52,616 bases of DNA. It comes from a phage. Positions 4,284 to 23,215 of the stretch are shown piece by piece; within the stretch, counting starts at the first letter, position 1, and the number at the start of each line of letters is the position of its first letter. Made by a program: the position numbers and the translations under genes. The notes beneath the pieces were generated by a model. That model saw only the letters and a program-made list of their open reading frames with translations, did no database searches and was not told the DNA's origin. The DNA lies in sequence record PZ379594.1. The stretch is one strand, 5' to 3'.

Positions 4284-4311
4284 TCTAACATTAGTTGGAT
4301 GTGAGAGAGAC
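4284..4311 (+). promoter_or_regulatory. conserved promoter-like motif, copy 1 (CTAACATTAGTTGGATGTGAGAGAGA)
   Basis: One of five copies of a ~25-bp motif, all in intergenic DNA upstream of + strand genes; about 70 nt upstream of the 4380 ORF. Confidence 0.5.
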
Positions 4312-4379: not shown

Positions 4380-4757
4380 ATGGCACAATATAACGATTTA
4401 AACACTGGCATCATTGGTGCAAACGGCTACAAGAAGCAAGACACTCATCCTGATGTTCGTGGCCGCATTAACGTAGAGGGTATCTGGTATTGGGTATCTG
4501 GTTGGACCAAAAAGGCTGGTGACAATGAATTTACTTCATTGGCACTGACCATCATGACTCAGGAACAAGTTGATGAAATGATGCGTAAGCGTGAAGAGAA
4601 AGCTAAAGCCAAAGCTCAACCTCAAGCTGCCGCTCAACAGCAACAGCCACGCCAGCAACCTTCTGCACAACAGCAAGCACCTGTTCAGCAACAGACGCAG
4701 AATAGTAACTACAACCCGAACGAGCCGAAAGACTTCGACGACGACATTCCGTTCTAA
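4380..4757 (+). CDS. small protein with E. coli SSB-like C-terminal tail (Q/P-rich linker ending ...NEPKDFDDDIPF)
   Basis: The last residues DFDDDIPF match the partner-binding tip of enterobacterial SSB as I recall it; the N-terminal ~70 aa could be a compact beta-rich (OB-like) domain. Confidence 0.6.
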   Translation: MAQYNDLNTGIIGANGYKKQDTHPDVRGRINVEGIWYWVSGWTKKAGDNEFTSLALTIMTQEQVDEMMRKREEKAKAKAQPQAAAQQQQPRQQPSAQQQAPVQQQTQNSNYNPNEPKDFDDDIPF

Positions 4758-6951: not shown

Positions 6952-7218
6952 ATGAATTATCAAGACATACCAGCAGAGATTCAGCATCACTATGCCCGTA
7001 TAGATAAGGCAAAGAAAGAATTGCATCAAATGTCTGCGCTGAATCTAAGCGATGAAGTTCGATTAAATGCTTATATGGAGGTTGGAGAAACTTCCATGAA
7101 AATTAGCTTCAATGAGAAAGAAGCTATTATGCGGACGCTTATTAAAAATAGCGAGGAAAGATTAGTAAAACTTCGTAAAATACATAGTGCATTAACTGAC
7201 ACAATGGAGAGCATATGA
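6952..7218 (+). CDS. hypothetical protein (~88 aa)
   Basis: ATG at 6952 with GGAG at 6942-6945; ATG at 6940 is an alternative. Confidence 0.45.
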
Positions 7219-7757
7219 GCACCATTATCCAAGCAATAGAAAATCTTAAGTCCTGGCGTAGAGATGAAACCTTATTGGTTCGTTTCTACACAGGCGAAAC
7301 TAATTCTGAATTTGTAGATGCGTGGATTGATGGCCTGTCTTGGCGTCACTATGATTTCGACATGCGGGATTATTTGCATGAAGAATACGGCATCGAATAC
7401 CCAAAAGATGGGACTTATGACATACTTGAATCAAGTGAAGCAGATGTAACAGAAGTTTGCTTTGCCAATGGCCTGTTCAGCATTCGCAAGTATGATAAGT
7501 TCAATGAGCTGCTTGTTGACACCGATTTGGATGTAATTCTTGCAGCATTCCGCAGTGGTGATATTGATATTTTCACTGTGAATGATTTGAACGACATGTT
7601 CATTACTCGTTGCGATTCAATTGCAGACTACTTCAAGCAAAGTGAAGCACTGGATATTCCAGACCGCCTTGCACCATATATTGATTGGGAAGCAATTGTG
7701 AAAGACTTCGGCAGCGACTATATCTTCTCTGAAGGAGTATTATTCCTAAATGTCTGA
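7215..7757 (+). CDS. acidic protein, possibly ArdA-like antirestriction (DNA mimic)
   Basis: Highly acidic; C-terminal [17 protein letters not shown] and N-terminal VDAWIDG resemble, from memory, the ArdA YIDY-AYGRDL and GAWF blocks; weak, needs profile search. Confidence 0.45.
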
Positions 7758-18140: not shown

Positions 18141-18412
18141 TGCAAACTGTATATTCTATTTTTGATATGCAGGAATCAGAGCACCATATGTTTGCTACCG
18201 ATTCCGAAGTTCCCGCAAAGGACGCTGTAATGGCGTTCCTTGAAAAGATTAAGGACAAAGTATTCTATTCGTCCGACACACAGTCTCAAGCAGTTAACGA
18301 TGAGACATTTAAAAACCTCCGAACTTTAATCTCGGCGACTACTTCAATTGAAGAGCTGTCCGAAGCATTAGTTGGATATGACTTCCGTCTTGCAATGTTG
18401 CAAGTCGATTAA
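18140..18412 (+). CDS. small acidic protein (90 aa)
   Basis: ATG overlaps the polymerase stop (TAATG). Confidence 0.5.
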   Translation: MQTVYSIFDMQESEHHMFATDSEVPAKDAVMAFLEKIKDKVFYSSDTQSQAVNDETFKNLRTLISATTSIEELSEALVGYDFRLAMLQVD

Positions 18413-18440: not shown

Positions 18441-19307
18441 ATGGCATTTGCTGCTCCTACACTGGCCTCGAACAAGACTCCTTCTGCTGCACCATTACTG
18501 GAAGCGGGTGGTTATCCTGCTCGTGTTTGCCGTATTATCGACCTGGGCTTACAGCCTGGTTCTGCTAAATATCCTACCCCGTCCTTGAAACTTCTGGTTA
18601 CTTTCGAACTGCTCGACGAGTACATGAAAGAAGTTGACAGTGAAGGTAAAATGGTCATGGTTCAAGACCCAGACGAAGATGACGGCATTATGATGGCGAA
18701 GAATCTTGAAGACAAGCCGCGTTGGTTTGACTTTGAGTTTACCTATAATGCTGACGGATTCATGGGTGAGAACTCCCACATCTACAAATTCGCTAAGGCG
18801 ATTGATGCACTGGAAGTTAAACCTAATCTGGAACAAGGCATTCAGGGCCATCCTGCCAAGAACCTTCCAGATTGGTTGGGCGAACCTCTGATTGTTGGCA
18901 TTGTTCAATATACCAAGCAGTCAGGTAAGAACGCTGGTCAGGTTGCTAACAAAGTTGCTACCTTCTCTCCGATGAAATCCAAAGAGAAGAAAGAAGCTAA
19001 AGCACTGGTTAACCCGACTGTCTTCTTCGACATGTCTGAGCCGGACCTGGAAGTATTCAACAAACTGCCAGGTGGCGAATCTCCGTATGCAATCAAGAAC
19101 CGTATTACTTCCGGTGTTGATTTCTACAAGACTAAGCTGTCTGCACTGTTAGGCGGTAAACCTGCCGATGAAGGCGCTGTACCGAATCAGGCTTCTGATG
19201 AAGAAGTTGATGCAGCTATGAAAGCTGAACTGGAAGCACAGGCTGCTGCAAAAGCACAGCGTGAAGCGGAAGGTGGTGCTGCTGGCGGTACGGGTATGCC
19301 GTTCTAA
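18441..19307 (+). CDS. highly expressed replication-module protein, possibly the phage ssDNA-binding protein
   Basis: E. coli-optimal codons, AAAGG RBS, strong terminator downstream, acidic C-terminal region ending in ...GMPF; function is inferred from position and tail only. Confidence 0.6.
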   Translation: MAFAAPTLASNKTPSAAPLLEAGGYPARVCRIIDLGLQPGSAKYPTPSLKLLVTFELLDEYMKEVDSEGKMVMVQDPDEDDGIMMAKNLEDKPRWFDFEFTYNADGFMGENSHIYKFAKAIDALEVKPNLEQGIQGHPAKNLPDWLGEPLIVGIVQYTKQSGKNAGQVANKVATFSPMKSKEKKEAKALVNPTVFFDMSEPDLEVFNKLPGGESPYAIKNRITSGVDFYKTKLSALLGGKPADEGAVPNQASDEEVDAAMKAELEAQAAAKAQREAEGGAAGGTGMPF

Positions 19308-19317
19308 CTATAAATAT

Positions 19318-19342
19318 GGCTCCTTCGGGAGCCTTTAATTTT
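19318..19342 (+). terminator. intrinsic terminator (GGCTCC-TTCG-GGAGCC + TTTAATTTT)
   Basis: Perfect 6-bp GC-rich stem with TTCG tetraloop followed by a T-rich tract. Confidence 0.7.
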
Positions 19343-19355
19343 GGAGCTTACCAAA

Positions 19356-20378
19356 GTGAGTAAGAAACGAGTTTTGTTGCTGGTTGACGGCGACATGGTT
19401 GCATTCAGTCACTGTGCTGCTGAGGAATACGGCAAAGATTCAGAAGATATTAACTTTGCTAAGATTCAAATGTCAATGGATTCCAAGATGGAATTCCTTG
19501 CGAAACGTGTGGGAGCTACAGAAGTAGTTACCTGCATTTCACCATCCAAAACATTCCGCAACGTTCTTGCCGAGAATTACAAAGGCAATCGTGATGATGT
19601 TTGGCGACCAGAAAACTTGAAGAATGCGAAAGCACATCTTATGGTTGCCTGGAACGGCGTGTGGATGAAGGGTCTGGAAGCAGATGACCTTCTTGCTGTA
19701 TTCGCACGTCATGAATACGAAATGACAATGGGTAAACGTAATGAGATTAAGGGCCTCAAGCGCATTGGTCCTTGCACATATGATGAAGTCTGGATTGCGT
19801 CGCTGGACAAAGACTTGCGACAAATCGGGCAGAATGGTGGTGCTGGTCCAGTAATTAAACATTACCAATGGGAACGAGAAACCCAGGGTATTGGTGAGAA
19901 GGTTGTAACTCCGCAGGATTACGGCGAACTCAAATTAATCATCAAGGACAACGGCAAGTCGAAGAAGAAAGAAGTTAAAGGCAATGGCCCTAAATTCTTC
20001 TTGCATCAATTGCTTATTGGCGACTCGACGGATAACGCTATGGGTTGCGGAGTTCTTGAAGAAAGAATTTACAAAACTGGTGCCAAAGCTGGAGAAACTT
20101 ATTTCCGTCGTGATGGCATTGGTGCAGTTGCTTCATTCGAAATGCTGGATGGTACAACCTCCTATGCAGAAGGTTTGAAGAAAGTTATTGGTGCATATAT
20201 TGTGCGCTTCGGAGATGGTTGGGAACAAGAGCTACTCAAAGTAGGTCGCCTTGTTTACATGCACCATCAAATTGAAAAGGGTAATTGTGTTCGCTTGTGG
20301 CATTACAAGAACATTAACGAATACTTTGACCTTAAAGAGAATCGTATCCTCACTCAAGAAGAGTACCTCCAGAAATAA
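19356..20378 (+). CDS. 5'-3' exonuclease / flap endonuclease (T7 gp6-like)
   Basis: N-terminal LLLVDGDMVAF; GTG at 19356 with GGAG 9 nt upstream (listed TTG start at 19341). Confidence 0.7.
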   Translation: MSKKRVLLLVDGDMVAFSHCAAEEYGKDSEDINFAKIQMSMDSKMEFLAKRVGATEVVTCISPSKTFRNVLAENYKGNRDDVWRPENLKNAKAHLMVAWNGVWMKGLEADDLLAVFARHEYEMTMGKRNEIKGLKRIGPCTYDEVWIASLDKDLRQIGQNGGAGPVIKHYQWERETQGIGEKVVTPQDYGELKLIIKDNGKSKKKEVKGNGPKFFLHQLLIGDSTDNAMGCGVLEERIYKTGAKAGETYFRRDGIGAVASFEMLDGTTSYAEGLKKVIGAYIVRFGDGWEQELLKVGRLVYMHHQIEKGNCVRLWHYKNINEYFDLKENRILTQEEYLQK

Positions 20379-20389
20379 TTGGAGTTGGA

Positions 20390-20914
20390 ATGGCTTACGG
20401 TTATTGTGGAACGGAAGCCAAGTTTGTATCTTGGCTCCAATCTGCTATTCGAAGTGTTTGGTCTAAACACCCAAGCAAACTTGCGCTGATACAATCTCGA
20501 CGCATTGCATTGAAGGTCGGTGACTCAAAGAAACCAATCTTCCACATTCAGTGCTACCATTGCAAGAAGTTGTATAAGCTCAAAGAGATTGAAGTAAACC
20601 ACAAAGTTCAAGTTGGTGGCCTCCTTAAGTTGGAAGACCTGCACCGCTTTGTGGACAACCTTCTACTGGTTCAGCCAGAAGATTTGGAATTGCTGTGTAA
20701 AGATTGTCACGGCATTGTTACATACATGGAACGATATGGTGTATCACGTCGTGATGCAGTCATTAAGAAGAAGTGTATTGCATTTGCCAAATTGTCTGAC
20801 GAAGAGCAAATTGCCAAGTGCAAACTTGCTAAAATAGAGCCAGTTCCTAAAACCAAAATCGGACGCAAGAATGCTGTTCGAGAATACCTGAGAAAGAATC
20901 TTAATGTCTATTAA
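20390..20914 (+). CDS. HNH endonuclease
   Basis: Cys/His/Asn pattern CYHCKK...EVNHK...CKDCH; free-standing between the exonuclease and ligase genes. Confidence 0.6.
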   Translation: MAYGYCGTEAKFVSWLQSAIRSVWSKHPSKLALIQSRRIALKVGDSKKPIFHIQCYHCKKLYKLKEIEVNHKVQVGGLLKLEDLHRFVDNLLLVQPEDLELLCKDCHGIVTYMERYGVSRRDAVIKKKCIAFAKLSDEEQIAKCKLAKIEPVPKTKIGRKNAVREYLRKNLNVY

Positions 20915-21659
20915 GCTCCTCGATGATGGTACAAAATACACAAAGGCTCACGCACATGATTGGGAAGACCCAGACTGCCGTATCAAAGGGCGCTGTGAAC
21001 TCTTCATCAAGATTGACGGAATTCGAGCTATCCGTAATAAATCAGGTAGTGTCTGGAGTCGTAATTCCAAACCCCTACCTCATTTGGACCACTTACAGTT
21101 CAGAGATGCTGAGATATTCCGTAATAGTTGGAATGAGACTTCTAGCATCCTCGGACGTATTGACCCGCCAAGCGTCCCTCTAACCCAGGACAATGTGTAT
21201 GAGTTGAGCGATGGTGCTGTTGACCCACGCCTGTACATCGGCTGGTGCAAAGACCCAAGCAATGAAAACCTTAAGGCATTGATGGATAAATATCTGGCGC
21301 TTGGTCATGAAGGTATCATTGTCCGTGATGCAAAAGGTAAGTGGTGGAAGATTGTACCATATAAATACGCCGATGTGAAGATTACTGGTATGAAAGAAGG
21401 TACTGGTGCTCTTAAAGGTATGTGTGGTTCTATCTCCTCGAACTACGGCAGTGCTGGCTCAATGGTGAAGGATTGTCTGGCAGACCACGGTATTCCAGAA
21501 TCTAACACACTGATTCGTAAGTGGTTGTGGGAACATCGCCACGAGCTAATTGGTTCGATTATGCAAGTTCGATATCGTGAGAAGACGGAAGCTGGTAAGT
21601 TCCGGTTCCCGTCACTCGTTCGTTTACGTTCAGACAAAAGTGAGGAAAGTTTTGATTAA
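20904..21659 (+). CDS. ATP-dependent DNA ligase (compact)
   Basis: Nucleotidyltransferase motif I KIDGIR, motif IV EGIIVRD, motif V AKGKWWKIV and motif VI-like RFPSLVRLRSDK. Confidence 0.7.
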   Translation: MSIKLLDDGTKYTKAHAHDWEDPDCRIKGRCELFIKIDGIRAIRNKSGSVWSRNSKPLPHLDHLQFRDAEIFRNSWNETSSILGRIDPPSVPLTQDNVYELSDGAVDPRLYIGWCKDPSNENLKALMDKYLALGHEGIIVRDAKGKWWKIVPYKYADVKITGMKEGTGALKGMCGSISSNYGSAGSMVKDCLADHGIPESNTLIRKWLWEHRHELIGSIMQVRYREKTEAGKFRFPSLVRLRSDKSEESFD

Positions 21660-23186: not shown

Positions 23187-23215
23187 AGGGAGGCCAGATA
23201 GCCTCCTATCTTATT
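23187..23215 (+). terminator. possible terminator/stem-loop (GGGAGGC...GCCTCC + T-rich)
   Basis: 6-7 bp GC stem followed by TATCTTATT; at the replication/packaging module boundary. Confidence 0.4.

Follow-up and report, generated by a model that had tools for sequence, protein, structure and literature searches.

A predicted replisome-associated single-stranded DNA-binding protein encoded next to the DNA polymerase gene of a phiEcoM-GJ1-like phage

The 52,616-nucleotide phage sequence PZ379594.1, referred to as the window when its whole length is meant, comes from a phiEcoM-GJ1-like myophage (Chaseviridae, Carltongylesvirus). The open reading frame (ORF) at 18441..19307 on its plus strand lies in the replication module and encodes a 288-residue protein that we call gp39 after its homolog in phiEcoM-GJ1, where it is recorded as a 'hypothetical protein'. 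We predict gp39 to be a replisome-associated single-stranded DNA (ssDNA)-binding protein (SSB), with a probability of roughly 0.7. The prediction is supported by a modelled oligonucleotide/oligosaccharide-binding (OB) fold, by structural neighbours among OB-fold SSBs, DUF669 proteins and the N4 SSB, by a Pro-aromatic tip at the C-terminus and by the position of the gene between those for the DNA polymerase and a 5'-3' exonuclease. Phage O4, which has a gp39 homolog and in which no competing SSB is detected, and the expression signals of the gene provide further support. On the best reading, gp39 represents a new sequence family of a known kind, the phage OB-fold SSBs with a Pro-aromatic tail, and is structurally nearest to DUF669 and the N4 SSB. 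A preliminary description of this ORF had proposed that it could be the true phage SSB or a single-strand annealing protein. The former proposal is supported and a dedicated annealing protein is disfavoured because of the OB fold and the lack of any match to an annealing family, while the standing of gp39 as the only SSB is clouded by a second candidate at 4380..4757.

The gp39 ORF begins with an ATG, a start supported by the presence of M1 in 97% of the aligned homologs, and its product ends in ...GGTGMPF. Searching with tblastn recovered aligned stretches of 99.7-100% identity in phiEcoM-GJ1, ST32, Bp7 and other Carltongylesvirus genomes.

Results

Predicted structure of gp39

An AlphaFold2 model of gp39 was built from a 55-sequence alignment and had a mean predicted local distance difference test score (pLDDT) of 87.3, with blocks mostly above 90, and a predicted template modelling score of 0.75. 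The N-terminal part of the model contains β1 (residues 23-38), β2 (48-65), a clade-specific β-hairpin insert (66-87), β3 (88-102), a helix (113-120), β4 (149-158) and β5 (168-176). As modelled, the succession β1-β2-β3-helix-β4-β5 is the canonical order of an OB fold. Conserved aromatic and basic positions are located on the strands (Y25, R28, F55, Y61, R94 and W95) and K179 follows β5. Helices at residues ~180-236 form a small second domain with conserved F196, P201-D202-x-E-x-F206 and L233; oligomerisation or partner binding would be a guess at its role.

In a Foldseek search of the PDB, the list was headed by PrgE (E 1e-3, probability 1.0, template modelling (TM)-score 0.55 normalised to the target), and PriB-ssDNA, SsbA, SsbB, CST, PRD1 P12 and E. 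coli SSB, all OB-fold ssDNA binders, were also among the top matches. The same search of BFVD returned 68 matches at E <= 1e-3, including uncharacterised podovirus and siphovirus proteins, Xp10 37L, DUF669 proteins (E 4.9e-5 and 5.2e-5, both with probability 1.0) and one protein annotated as SSB. A reciprocal structural test was performed with a model of the N4 SSB (pLDDT 82.9), whose secondary-structure elements are arranged in a similar order to those of gp39, with helices after the β-core. Thirteen of the top 50 BFVD neighbours of the N4 model were also present in the top 50 of gp39: A5A3T3, A0A7H0XAX8, S5Z9C9, A0A6J5S462 (DUF669), A0A8S5S412 (annotated 'SSB'), A0A2R4A1V1, A0A516L0T1, A0A411MR12, A0A6J5PMU2 (DUF669), A0A516L5G9, A0A6B9L620, F2W640 and A0A8F2E6Q9. 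This comparison involves predicted models only and proceeds via common neighbours rather than direct pairwise superposition. By these 13 common neighbours, the gp39 family is structurally close to two SSB families that have experimental support.

DUF669 and the N4 SSB have been treated as divergent OB-fold SSBs with acidic tails and are linked to each other at 98% HHsearch probability (PMC4889955). DUF669 proteins were reported to bear acidic tails, to recover OB folds weakly and to be present in viruses without a known SSB (PMC4889955); for the HK620 DUF669 protein, SSB function has been demonstrated in vitro (PMC5928155). The criteria used in PMC4889955 are an acidic C-terminal tail and the lack of another known SSB in the genome. 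Acidic tails are found across the gp39 family, and no other SSB was detected in O4, whereas in the window the 125-residue product of 4380..4757 is also annotated as SSB. The GenBank depositors of PP101 described its gp39 ortholog as 'hypothetical protein, DUF669', an independent pointer toward the DUF669/N4 SSB neighbourhood.

The C-terminal tail and its tip

Residues 241-288 of gp39 contain 10 Asp/Glu against 3 Lys/Arg and have an isoelectric point (pI) of 4.05. The pLDDT drops below 50 at residues 245-248 and 280-288, and a long, clade-specific helix rich in Ala, Glu, Lys and Gln is predicted at residues 253-278. The acidic C-terminal segment ending in GMPF of the preliminary description is thus present and ends as stated, but the last 11 residues (GGAAGGTGMPF) are Gly/Ala-rich rather than acidic.

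In the alignment of the gp39 family, a variable linker joins a conserved region of ~230 residues to a conserved tip, in which position 287 is Pro in 88% and position 288 aromatic in 100% of the aligned sequences. Among 247 full-length homologs, 212 have Phe, Trp or Tyr at the very C-terminus, 238 have one or more aromatics among their three final residues and 181 possess a Pro-aromatic tip; an aromatic tip in this family is far beyond chance. The last 30 residues of these homologs bear a mean net charge of -4.9, and the Pro-aromatic tip is preceded by an acidic pair in 77 of the 247 and takes the form DDD[ILVMN]P[FWY] in eight. Endings of the distant homologs include ...GDDDIPW (O4 gp40), ...DFDDDLPW (CW02 gp25), ...EDDDNPW (KpnP_VR7901) and ...FDDDIPF (gp070 of Cronobacter phage A24, Grimontviridae). 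The FDDDIPF of A24 is the tip of E. coli SSB, and A24, O4 and CW02 carry the full bacterial-SSB-type motif. Distant members thus end like bacterial SSB, in line with the earlier remark that the gp39 tip echoes the aromatic tips of SSB-type proteins. In the close, Cleopatravirinae-type group, whose members are ~50 residues longer than those of the distant group, all 83 sequences have the Pro-aromatic tip.

Gene order across phage families and phage O4

The slot between DNA polymerase and 5'-3' exonuclease is occupied by a gp39 homolog in three phage families, Chaseviridae, Zobellviridae and Grimontviridae. The order primase/helicase, DNA polymerase, small ORF, gp39 homolog and exonuclease was found in Chaseviridae (GJ1, 2KOFFS, Faunus, PP101, Y2, pAh6.2TG and a Hafnia-associated contig) and again in three genera of Zobellviridae (O4, CW02 and KpnP_VR7901); a Hafnia match that appears to be 'chromosomal' is the same phage-type module. 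The arrangement is looser in Grimontviridae phage A24, where the homolog is separated from the polymerase by several small genes and an endolysin gene and from the exonuclease by a sigma-factor gene. A remote homolog, Xp10 37L (hhalign probability 81%, E 1.2e-5; BFVD Foldseek E 2.2e-7), is likewise encoded between DNA polymerase 38L and exonuclease 36L. The annotated 37L of this Xanthomonas phage (6814-7419) ends in ...HLHPRHLL and has neither an acidic nor an aromatic tail, which could mean either that the tail was truly lost or that the 3' end is frameshifted or misannotated.

Phage O4 encodes its own primase-helicase and polymerase and has no annotated SSB. A six-frame search of the first 50,000 of its 50,509 bases identified no counterpart of E. 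coli SSB, T7 gp2.5, N4 gp45, the HK620 SSB or the small SSB-like protein; the gp39 homolog was the only match (E 3e-16).

Codon usage, promoter and terminator

The E. coli codon adaptation index (CAI) of gp39, calculated with the w-values of Sharp & Li 1987, is 0.519, which ranks fourth among the 56 genes of the window and compares with 0.27-0.36 for the other genes of the replication module. The effective number of codons (ENC), which needs no reference set, is 38.8 for gp39 and 44.7-58.9 for the remaining module genes. gp39 is also the sole module gene whose codon usage leans toward the abundant structural genes of the phage itself (+0.09 per codon). All three measures agree with its earlier designation as the most codon-optimised gene of the module. 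Genome-wide, a stronger bias was found in the ORF at 10273..10611 and in two structural genes.

A 20-mer upstream of gp39, AAGCATTAGTTGGATATGAC, agrees at every position with an element that the phiEcoM-GJ1 record annotates as 'putative phage promoter 8'. Its core, ATTAGTTGGA (18367-18376), ends 65 nt before the gp39 ATG, within the 3' end of the preceding small ORF, and is present in five copies in the window, all on the plus strand, against 0.25 expected. By that annotation the element is a putative phage promoter. The motif had been overlooked in the preliminary description.

On the other side of the gene, a hairpin (19318-19333) begins 11 nt past the stop codon, precedes the exonuclease gene and is followed by TTTAATTTT. 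The local fold has a free energy of -17.7 kcal/mol (z = -3.8 against shuffled sequences). Stem-loops with other stem sequences occur at the equivalent position in Faunus (GAGGGC-TTCG-GCCCTC), PP101, Y2 and A24 (GAGGCC-TTCG-GGCCTC followed by TTTATTT). Since the stems differ in sequence at one shared position across these relatives, the terminator is kept by position and not by descent of a single sequence. Terminator-like sites are not enriched in the region as a whole (15 found versus 12 expected). The terminator reported directly after the gene is where it was said to be, but its description as the strongest is open to debate, since a similar score was obtained for a 7-pair site at 23188. 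With the promoter-like element upstream and the terminator-like hairpin downstream, gp39 is thus bracketed by expression signals of its own.

The gp39 family and its names

A word-indexed search identified 180 gp39 homologs, and an exhaustive profile search covering 1.84 billion representative proteins yielded 4270 clusters, defined at 50% identity, with E <= 0.001 and 1617 with E <= 1e-10. The best 150 matches listed from the latter search were all clear gp39-family members, and a Pfam search with the ten weakest of them produced nothing relevant. Matching phage records number 172, and the labels among the matches listed are 'hypothetical protein', 'Phage protein' or 'gp52'. The genera most often represented in the tblastn matches include Aeromonas (22 records), Pseudomonas (15) and Shewanella (5). 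gp39 matches PHROG 862 (E 1e-42) and PHROG 6599, both of 'unknown function'. No precomputed Pfam domain is present on any listed homolog, and a Pfam search with gp39 itself gave no family and only a chance LRR match (E 0.21). Searches of PDB sequences by phmmer and with the family profile yielded nothing useful, and literature searches found no paper on the gp39 protein. The family is thus large and either unnamed or misnamed in databases.

The misnaming concerns NCBIfam NF046043, 'phage replication initiation protein, NGO0469 family', which matches gp39 over residues 18-210 (E 2.8e-16). The score of 59.6 bits against a cut-off of 75 bits makes gp39 homologous to, but outside, the curated family, and the E value identifies the Neisseria prophage proteins as real gp39 homologs. 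N. gonorrhoeae NGO0469, NGO1130 and NGO1620 bear this name. It goes back to BLAST matches from 2007 (PMC1931599), in which 109 residues aligned with a nanovirus Rep at 26% identity and 87 residues with a primase at 32%, and was later repeated without any test (PMC12186493). The name is probably a propagating misannotation because it was built on such weak matches while the proteins that carry it are homologs of an SSB candidate. We therefore rejected the 'replication initiation' label for gp39.

A second SSB candidate

The 125-residue protein encoded at 4380..4757 matches PHROG 7364, 'single strand DNA binding protein' (E 6e-41), and is annotated as SSB throughout the Cleopatravirinae, including its counterpart ORF19 in ST32 (PMC6266442). 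It is composed of a ~55-residue N-terminal domain, a Gln/Pro-rich linker and the ending ...PKDFDDDIPF, which is identical to E. coli SSB in 9 of the last 10 residues. Its gene has the seventh-highest CAI, and a promoter core lies 81 nt upstream at 4290. The likeness to bacterial SSB is limited to the tail, and in BLASTP the alignment with E. coli SSB covers no more than the final 10 residues. The N-terminal domain occurs twice in the 158-residue 'SSB' of Vibrio phage QH, which ends in ...PPMDFDDDIPF and whose gene adjoins that for DNA polymerase. The tail-only likeness would make the 125-residue protein a mere tail mimic, but the QH duplication indicates that it may be a real small ssDNA binder. 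It could thus either act as a mini-SSB or imitate the tip of the host SSB.

Aeromonas, Pseudomonas and Shewanella, listed above for gp39, are absent from the ten commonest genera in which tblastn found the 125-residue protein. Where the small protein is absent, the gp39 homolog has a full acidic SSB tip; where it is present, the gp39 tip is de-acidified. The pattern suggests a division of labour between the two proteins.

Comparison with known SSB and annealing families

Alignments were built for the gp39 family (A2, 99 sequences), the HK620 family (A3), the N4 family (A4) and T7 gp2.5 (A6, from viral contigs). A control hhalign comparison of HK620 DUF669 with the N4 SSB gave E 1.7e-5 and a probability of 78%. 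Several results of the same kind for gp39, together with some properties of the protein, weigh against its assignment as an SSB. The gp39 family aligned with the N4 SSB at a non-significant E of 0.043 (probability 1.2%), with HK620 DUF669 at 0.82 (0.05%) and with T7 gp2.5 at 0.22 (0.27%), the last with the limited sensitivity of a gp2.5 alignment of eight close sequences. Pfam DUF669 (PF05037) touched only 2 of the 99 family members (best E 0.036), and the Pfam search places gp39 in no SSB family. The PDB matches found by Foldseek are weak, with TM-scores of at most 0.28 when normalised to the query and a best E of 1e-3, and OB folds occur also in proteins that do not bind ssDNA. gp39 is acidic, with a pI of 4.9 for the whole protein and 5.0-5.4 for the core. 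The last ten residues contain on average 1.2 acidic residues in the Cleopatravirinae-type group as opposed to 4.2 in the distant homologs. Finally, the 125-residue protein, with the host tip DFDDDIPF verbatim, could be the replicative SSB.

The insignificance of the hhalign and Pfam DUF669 results means that membership of gp39 in DUF669 or the N4 family fails by sequence. The alignment with N4 is co-linear over 120 columns, and we do not count it as evidence because its E is only 0.043. The gp39 family has diverged in sequence from both of these families past profile detection. Single-sequence hhalign of the gp39 family against N4 gp45, T7 gp2.5 and the HK620 SSB found nothing, nor did phmmer of T7 gp2.5 against all ORFs of the window. 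Pfam, NCBIfam and phmmer searches detected no match in gp39 to the OB domain of bacterial SSB (PF00436), and the Pfam models for T7 gp2.5 and Enc34 (PF21265 and PF10991) did not match. For Erf, Sak/Rad52, RecT/Redβ and Sak4, there was no Pfam match at E <= 10 and no representative among the 50 listed PDB matches. Kinship with T7 gp2.5, Erf or Sak, raised in the preliminary description, is accordingly not borne out by Pfam, by the gp2.5 profile comparison or by any annealing fold among the listed PDB matches.

Discussion

Alternative functions

If gp39 were mainly a single-strand annealing or recombination-mediator protein, paired with the 5'-3' exonuclease in the manner of T7 gp2.5/gp6 or Redβ/Exo, the 125-residue protein would be the replicative SSB. 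In favour of this arrangement, the gp39 homolog is encoded just upstream of the exonuclease in all lineages inspected, T7 gp2.5 carries annotations both as SSB and as annealing protein, no other recombinase is annotated in the stretch of phiEcoM-GJ1 that was read, and the clade does contain a second annotated SSB. We nevertheless regard it as unlikely: Pfam gave no match to Erf, Rad52/Sak, RecT or Sak4, the predicted fold is OB and not Rad52- or Redβ-like, with no annealing protein among the 50 listed PDB matches, the bacterial-type tip of the distant homologs is a hallmark of SSBs, and O4-like phages have the gp39 homolog and no other SSB candidate. An SSB can also have annealing activity. 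The last point on O4 applies equally to the proposal that gp39 does not coat DNA and is instead an OB-fold adaptor or regulator, acting as a replisome hub, a transcription co-activator or a decoy for proteins that bind SSB tips, as in these phages nothing else could supply the SSB function. The N4 SSB also acts on RNA polymerase, phage sigma factors are encoded nearby in Zobellviridae and Grimontviridae, and gp39 has an acidic core (pI 5.0-5.4), an additional helical domain and a long helix specific to its clade. A Pro-(x)-Phe tip is also present on at least two other highly expressed early proteins of the window, suggesting competition for one pocket. Against these considerations, the conserved aromatic and basic residues fall on β1-β3, the strands with which OB-fold SSBs touch DNA, and the structural neighbours are ssDNA binders, so that an adaptor role appears quite unlikely.

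It is very improbable that gp39 is a replication initiation protein as the NF046043 name would have it. The match to that family reflects real homology but falls under the cut-off, and the name itself derives from the weak matches of 2007 described above. The gp39 model shows no HUH, AAA+ or winged-helix fold, and strong codon bias together with a private promoter and terminator fits a stoichiometric protein better than a low-copy initiator.

A working model for gp39 as an SSB

We infer ssDNA binding, tail partners and oligomeric state of gp39 as follows. The N-terminal OB core would bind ssDNA exposed by the T7-type primase-helicase, which conserved side chains of β1-β3, the aromatic Y25, F55, Y61 and W95 and the basic R28 and R94, would contact, while the helical domain would probably serve self-association or partner contacts. 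The flexible acidic tail with its Pro-Phe end may dock into a pocket of a partner, for which the phage DNA polymerase or primase-helicase and/or the host proteins to which the bacterial SSB tip binds are candidates; T7 gp2.5 and E. coli SSB use their tails for such docking. The dedicated promoter, the codon bias and the terminator could ensure a stoichiometric supply of SSB, uncoupled from the surrounding enzymes.

gp39 resembles known SSBs in different respects. As in the N4 SSB and DUF669 (HK620 HkaK/Abc1), a divergent OB-like β-core is followed in the models by helices and a flexible tail, and the gene resides within a replication or recombination module. The HK620 SSB family shares the ending ...PF with gp39, whereas the N4 SSB ends in ...SLFGKK and has no aromatic tip. 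The N4 and HK620 SSB genes adjoin that for the Sak4 annealing protein, unlike gp39 with its place between DNA polymerase and exonuclease; no Sak4 is annotated in the stretch read. T7 gp2.5 likewise has a T7-type primase-helicase and a family A DNA polymerase as partners, an acidic tail (...DEDGDF) whose terminal aromatic, needed for its contacts with polymerase and helicase, has a conserved counterpart in gp39, and a phage promoter (phi2.5) just upstream of its gene, and its OB fold has a helix between β3 and β4, as predicted for gp39. Unlike gp39, gp2.5 lacks the extra C-terminal helical domain and is encoded upstream of an endonuclease gene rather than between polymerase and exonuclease; no gp2.5 structure is among the 50 listed PDB matches of gp39. 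With bacterial SSB, gp39 shares the OB fold (weak Foldseek matches, E 0.1-0.7), a flexible linker and, in its distant relatives, a DDDIPF-type tip. The gp39 core is much larger (~170 residues with inserts), a helical domain is added, and only -MPF or -IPF, with no run of acidic residues before it, is left of the tip in the gp39 clade.

If gp39 is indeed an SSB, it completes the predicted replisome of Chaseviridae and Zobellviridae, probably also fills the SSB gap in Xp10-like and other phages with T7-type replication enzymes, and corrects a misleading functional name in Neisseria prophages. It would also offer a concrete protein for reconstituted replication and for studying the entry of the phage into the host SSB-interaction network. 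Since the family is unnamed or misnamed in databases, the result fills an annotation gap and does not define a new kind of system. An OB fold with an acidic aromatic tail is textbook SSB design, and the finding is useful for annotation and unsurprising in principle.

Neighbouring genes and other Pro-Phe tips

The features of the locus are collected in Table 1. The phiEcoM-GJ1 record gives the order primase/helicase gp35, HNH, DNA polymerase gp37, gp38, gp39, 5'-3' exonuclease gp40, HNH and ligase, and the replication genes of the window agree with it, HNH content aside. In phiEcoM-GJ1, one HNH gene, gp34 (7011-7454), precedes the primase/helicase and another, gp36 (9279-9764), separates it from the polymerase. 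The corresponding gap in the window (16140..16206) is only 65 nt and has no HNH gene, and homing-endonuclease content therefore varies among near-identical phages. The small ORF at 18140..18412 shows the weakest codon bias of the module (ENC 58.9) and holds the putative promoter of gp39. A small ORF occupies this slot also in several Chaseviridae and in the Zobellviridae genomes inspected.

Table 1. Coordinates of gp39, its predicted parts and flanking signals, and other genes of interest in PZ379594.1
Feature	Position	Strand	Basis
125-residue protein annotated SSB in related phages	4380..4757	+	PHROG 7364, tip, promoter core 4290-4299
Primase/helicase	14377..16140		
DNA polymerase	16206..18140		
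Small acidic ORF, 90 residues	18140..18412	+	PHROG 24945 (unknown function)
Phage-RNA-polymerase promoter-like element AAGCATTAGTTGGATATGAC	18363..18382	+	20-mer identical to an annotated putative promoter of phiEcoM-GJ1
gp39 coding sequence, predicted ssDNA-binding protein	18441..19307	+	ORF, translation, tblastn, PHROG 862
Predicted OB-fold core, residues ~12-180	18474..18980	+	AlphaFold2, conservation, Foldseek
Small helical C-terminal domain, residues 181-240	18981..19160	+	Secondary structure of the model, conservation
Flexible acidic linker, clade-specific helix and tip -G-M-P-F, residues 241-288	19161..19304	+	pLDDT, charge, conservation
Intrinsic-terminator-like hairpin GGCTCC-TTCG-GGAGCC with T-rich tail	19318..19343	+	Pattern scan, folding, position in relatives
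5'-3' exonuclease	19341..20378		
HNH endonuclease	20390..20914		
Ligase	20904..21659		

The ORF with the strongest codon bias genome-wide (10273..10611, plus strand; CAI 0.72, ENC 32) encodes a 112-residue protein of PHROG 17419 (unknown function) that has no Pfam or NCBIfam match. A promoter core is located at 9849, and the protein has an acidic Ala/Glu tail ending in ...EEAPVF, a Pro-x-Phe variant of the tip. Endings in -PF or -PVF occur in 4 of the 56 predicted proteins, namely those of 4380..4757 (DDDIPF), 8866..9186 (YGVPF), 10273..10611 (EEAPVF) and 18441..19307 (GMPF); by a rough estimate, ~0.1 -PF endings would be expected by chance. The ORF at 8866..9186, for which no PHROG match was found, is possibly not a genuine gene. 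All four map to the early or middle region, where each follows one of the four internal promoter cores (4290, 8198, 9849 and 18367). We consider it rather unlikely, but conceivable, that the Cleopatravirinae have a split SSB system, in which gp39 with its bare Pro-Phe tip would coat the DNA, the abundant 125-residue early protein, with the host tip verbatim, would capture host SSB-tip binders or divert them and at least one further highly expressed early protein, the product of 10273..10611, may compete for the same pocket, the whole forming a network of SSB-tip mimics.

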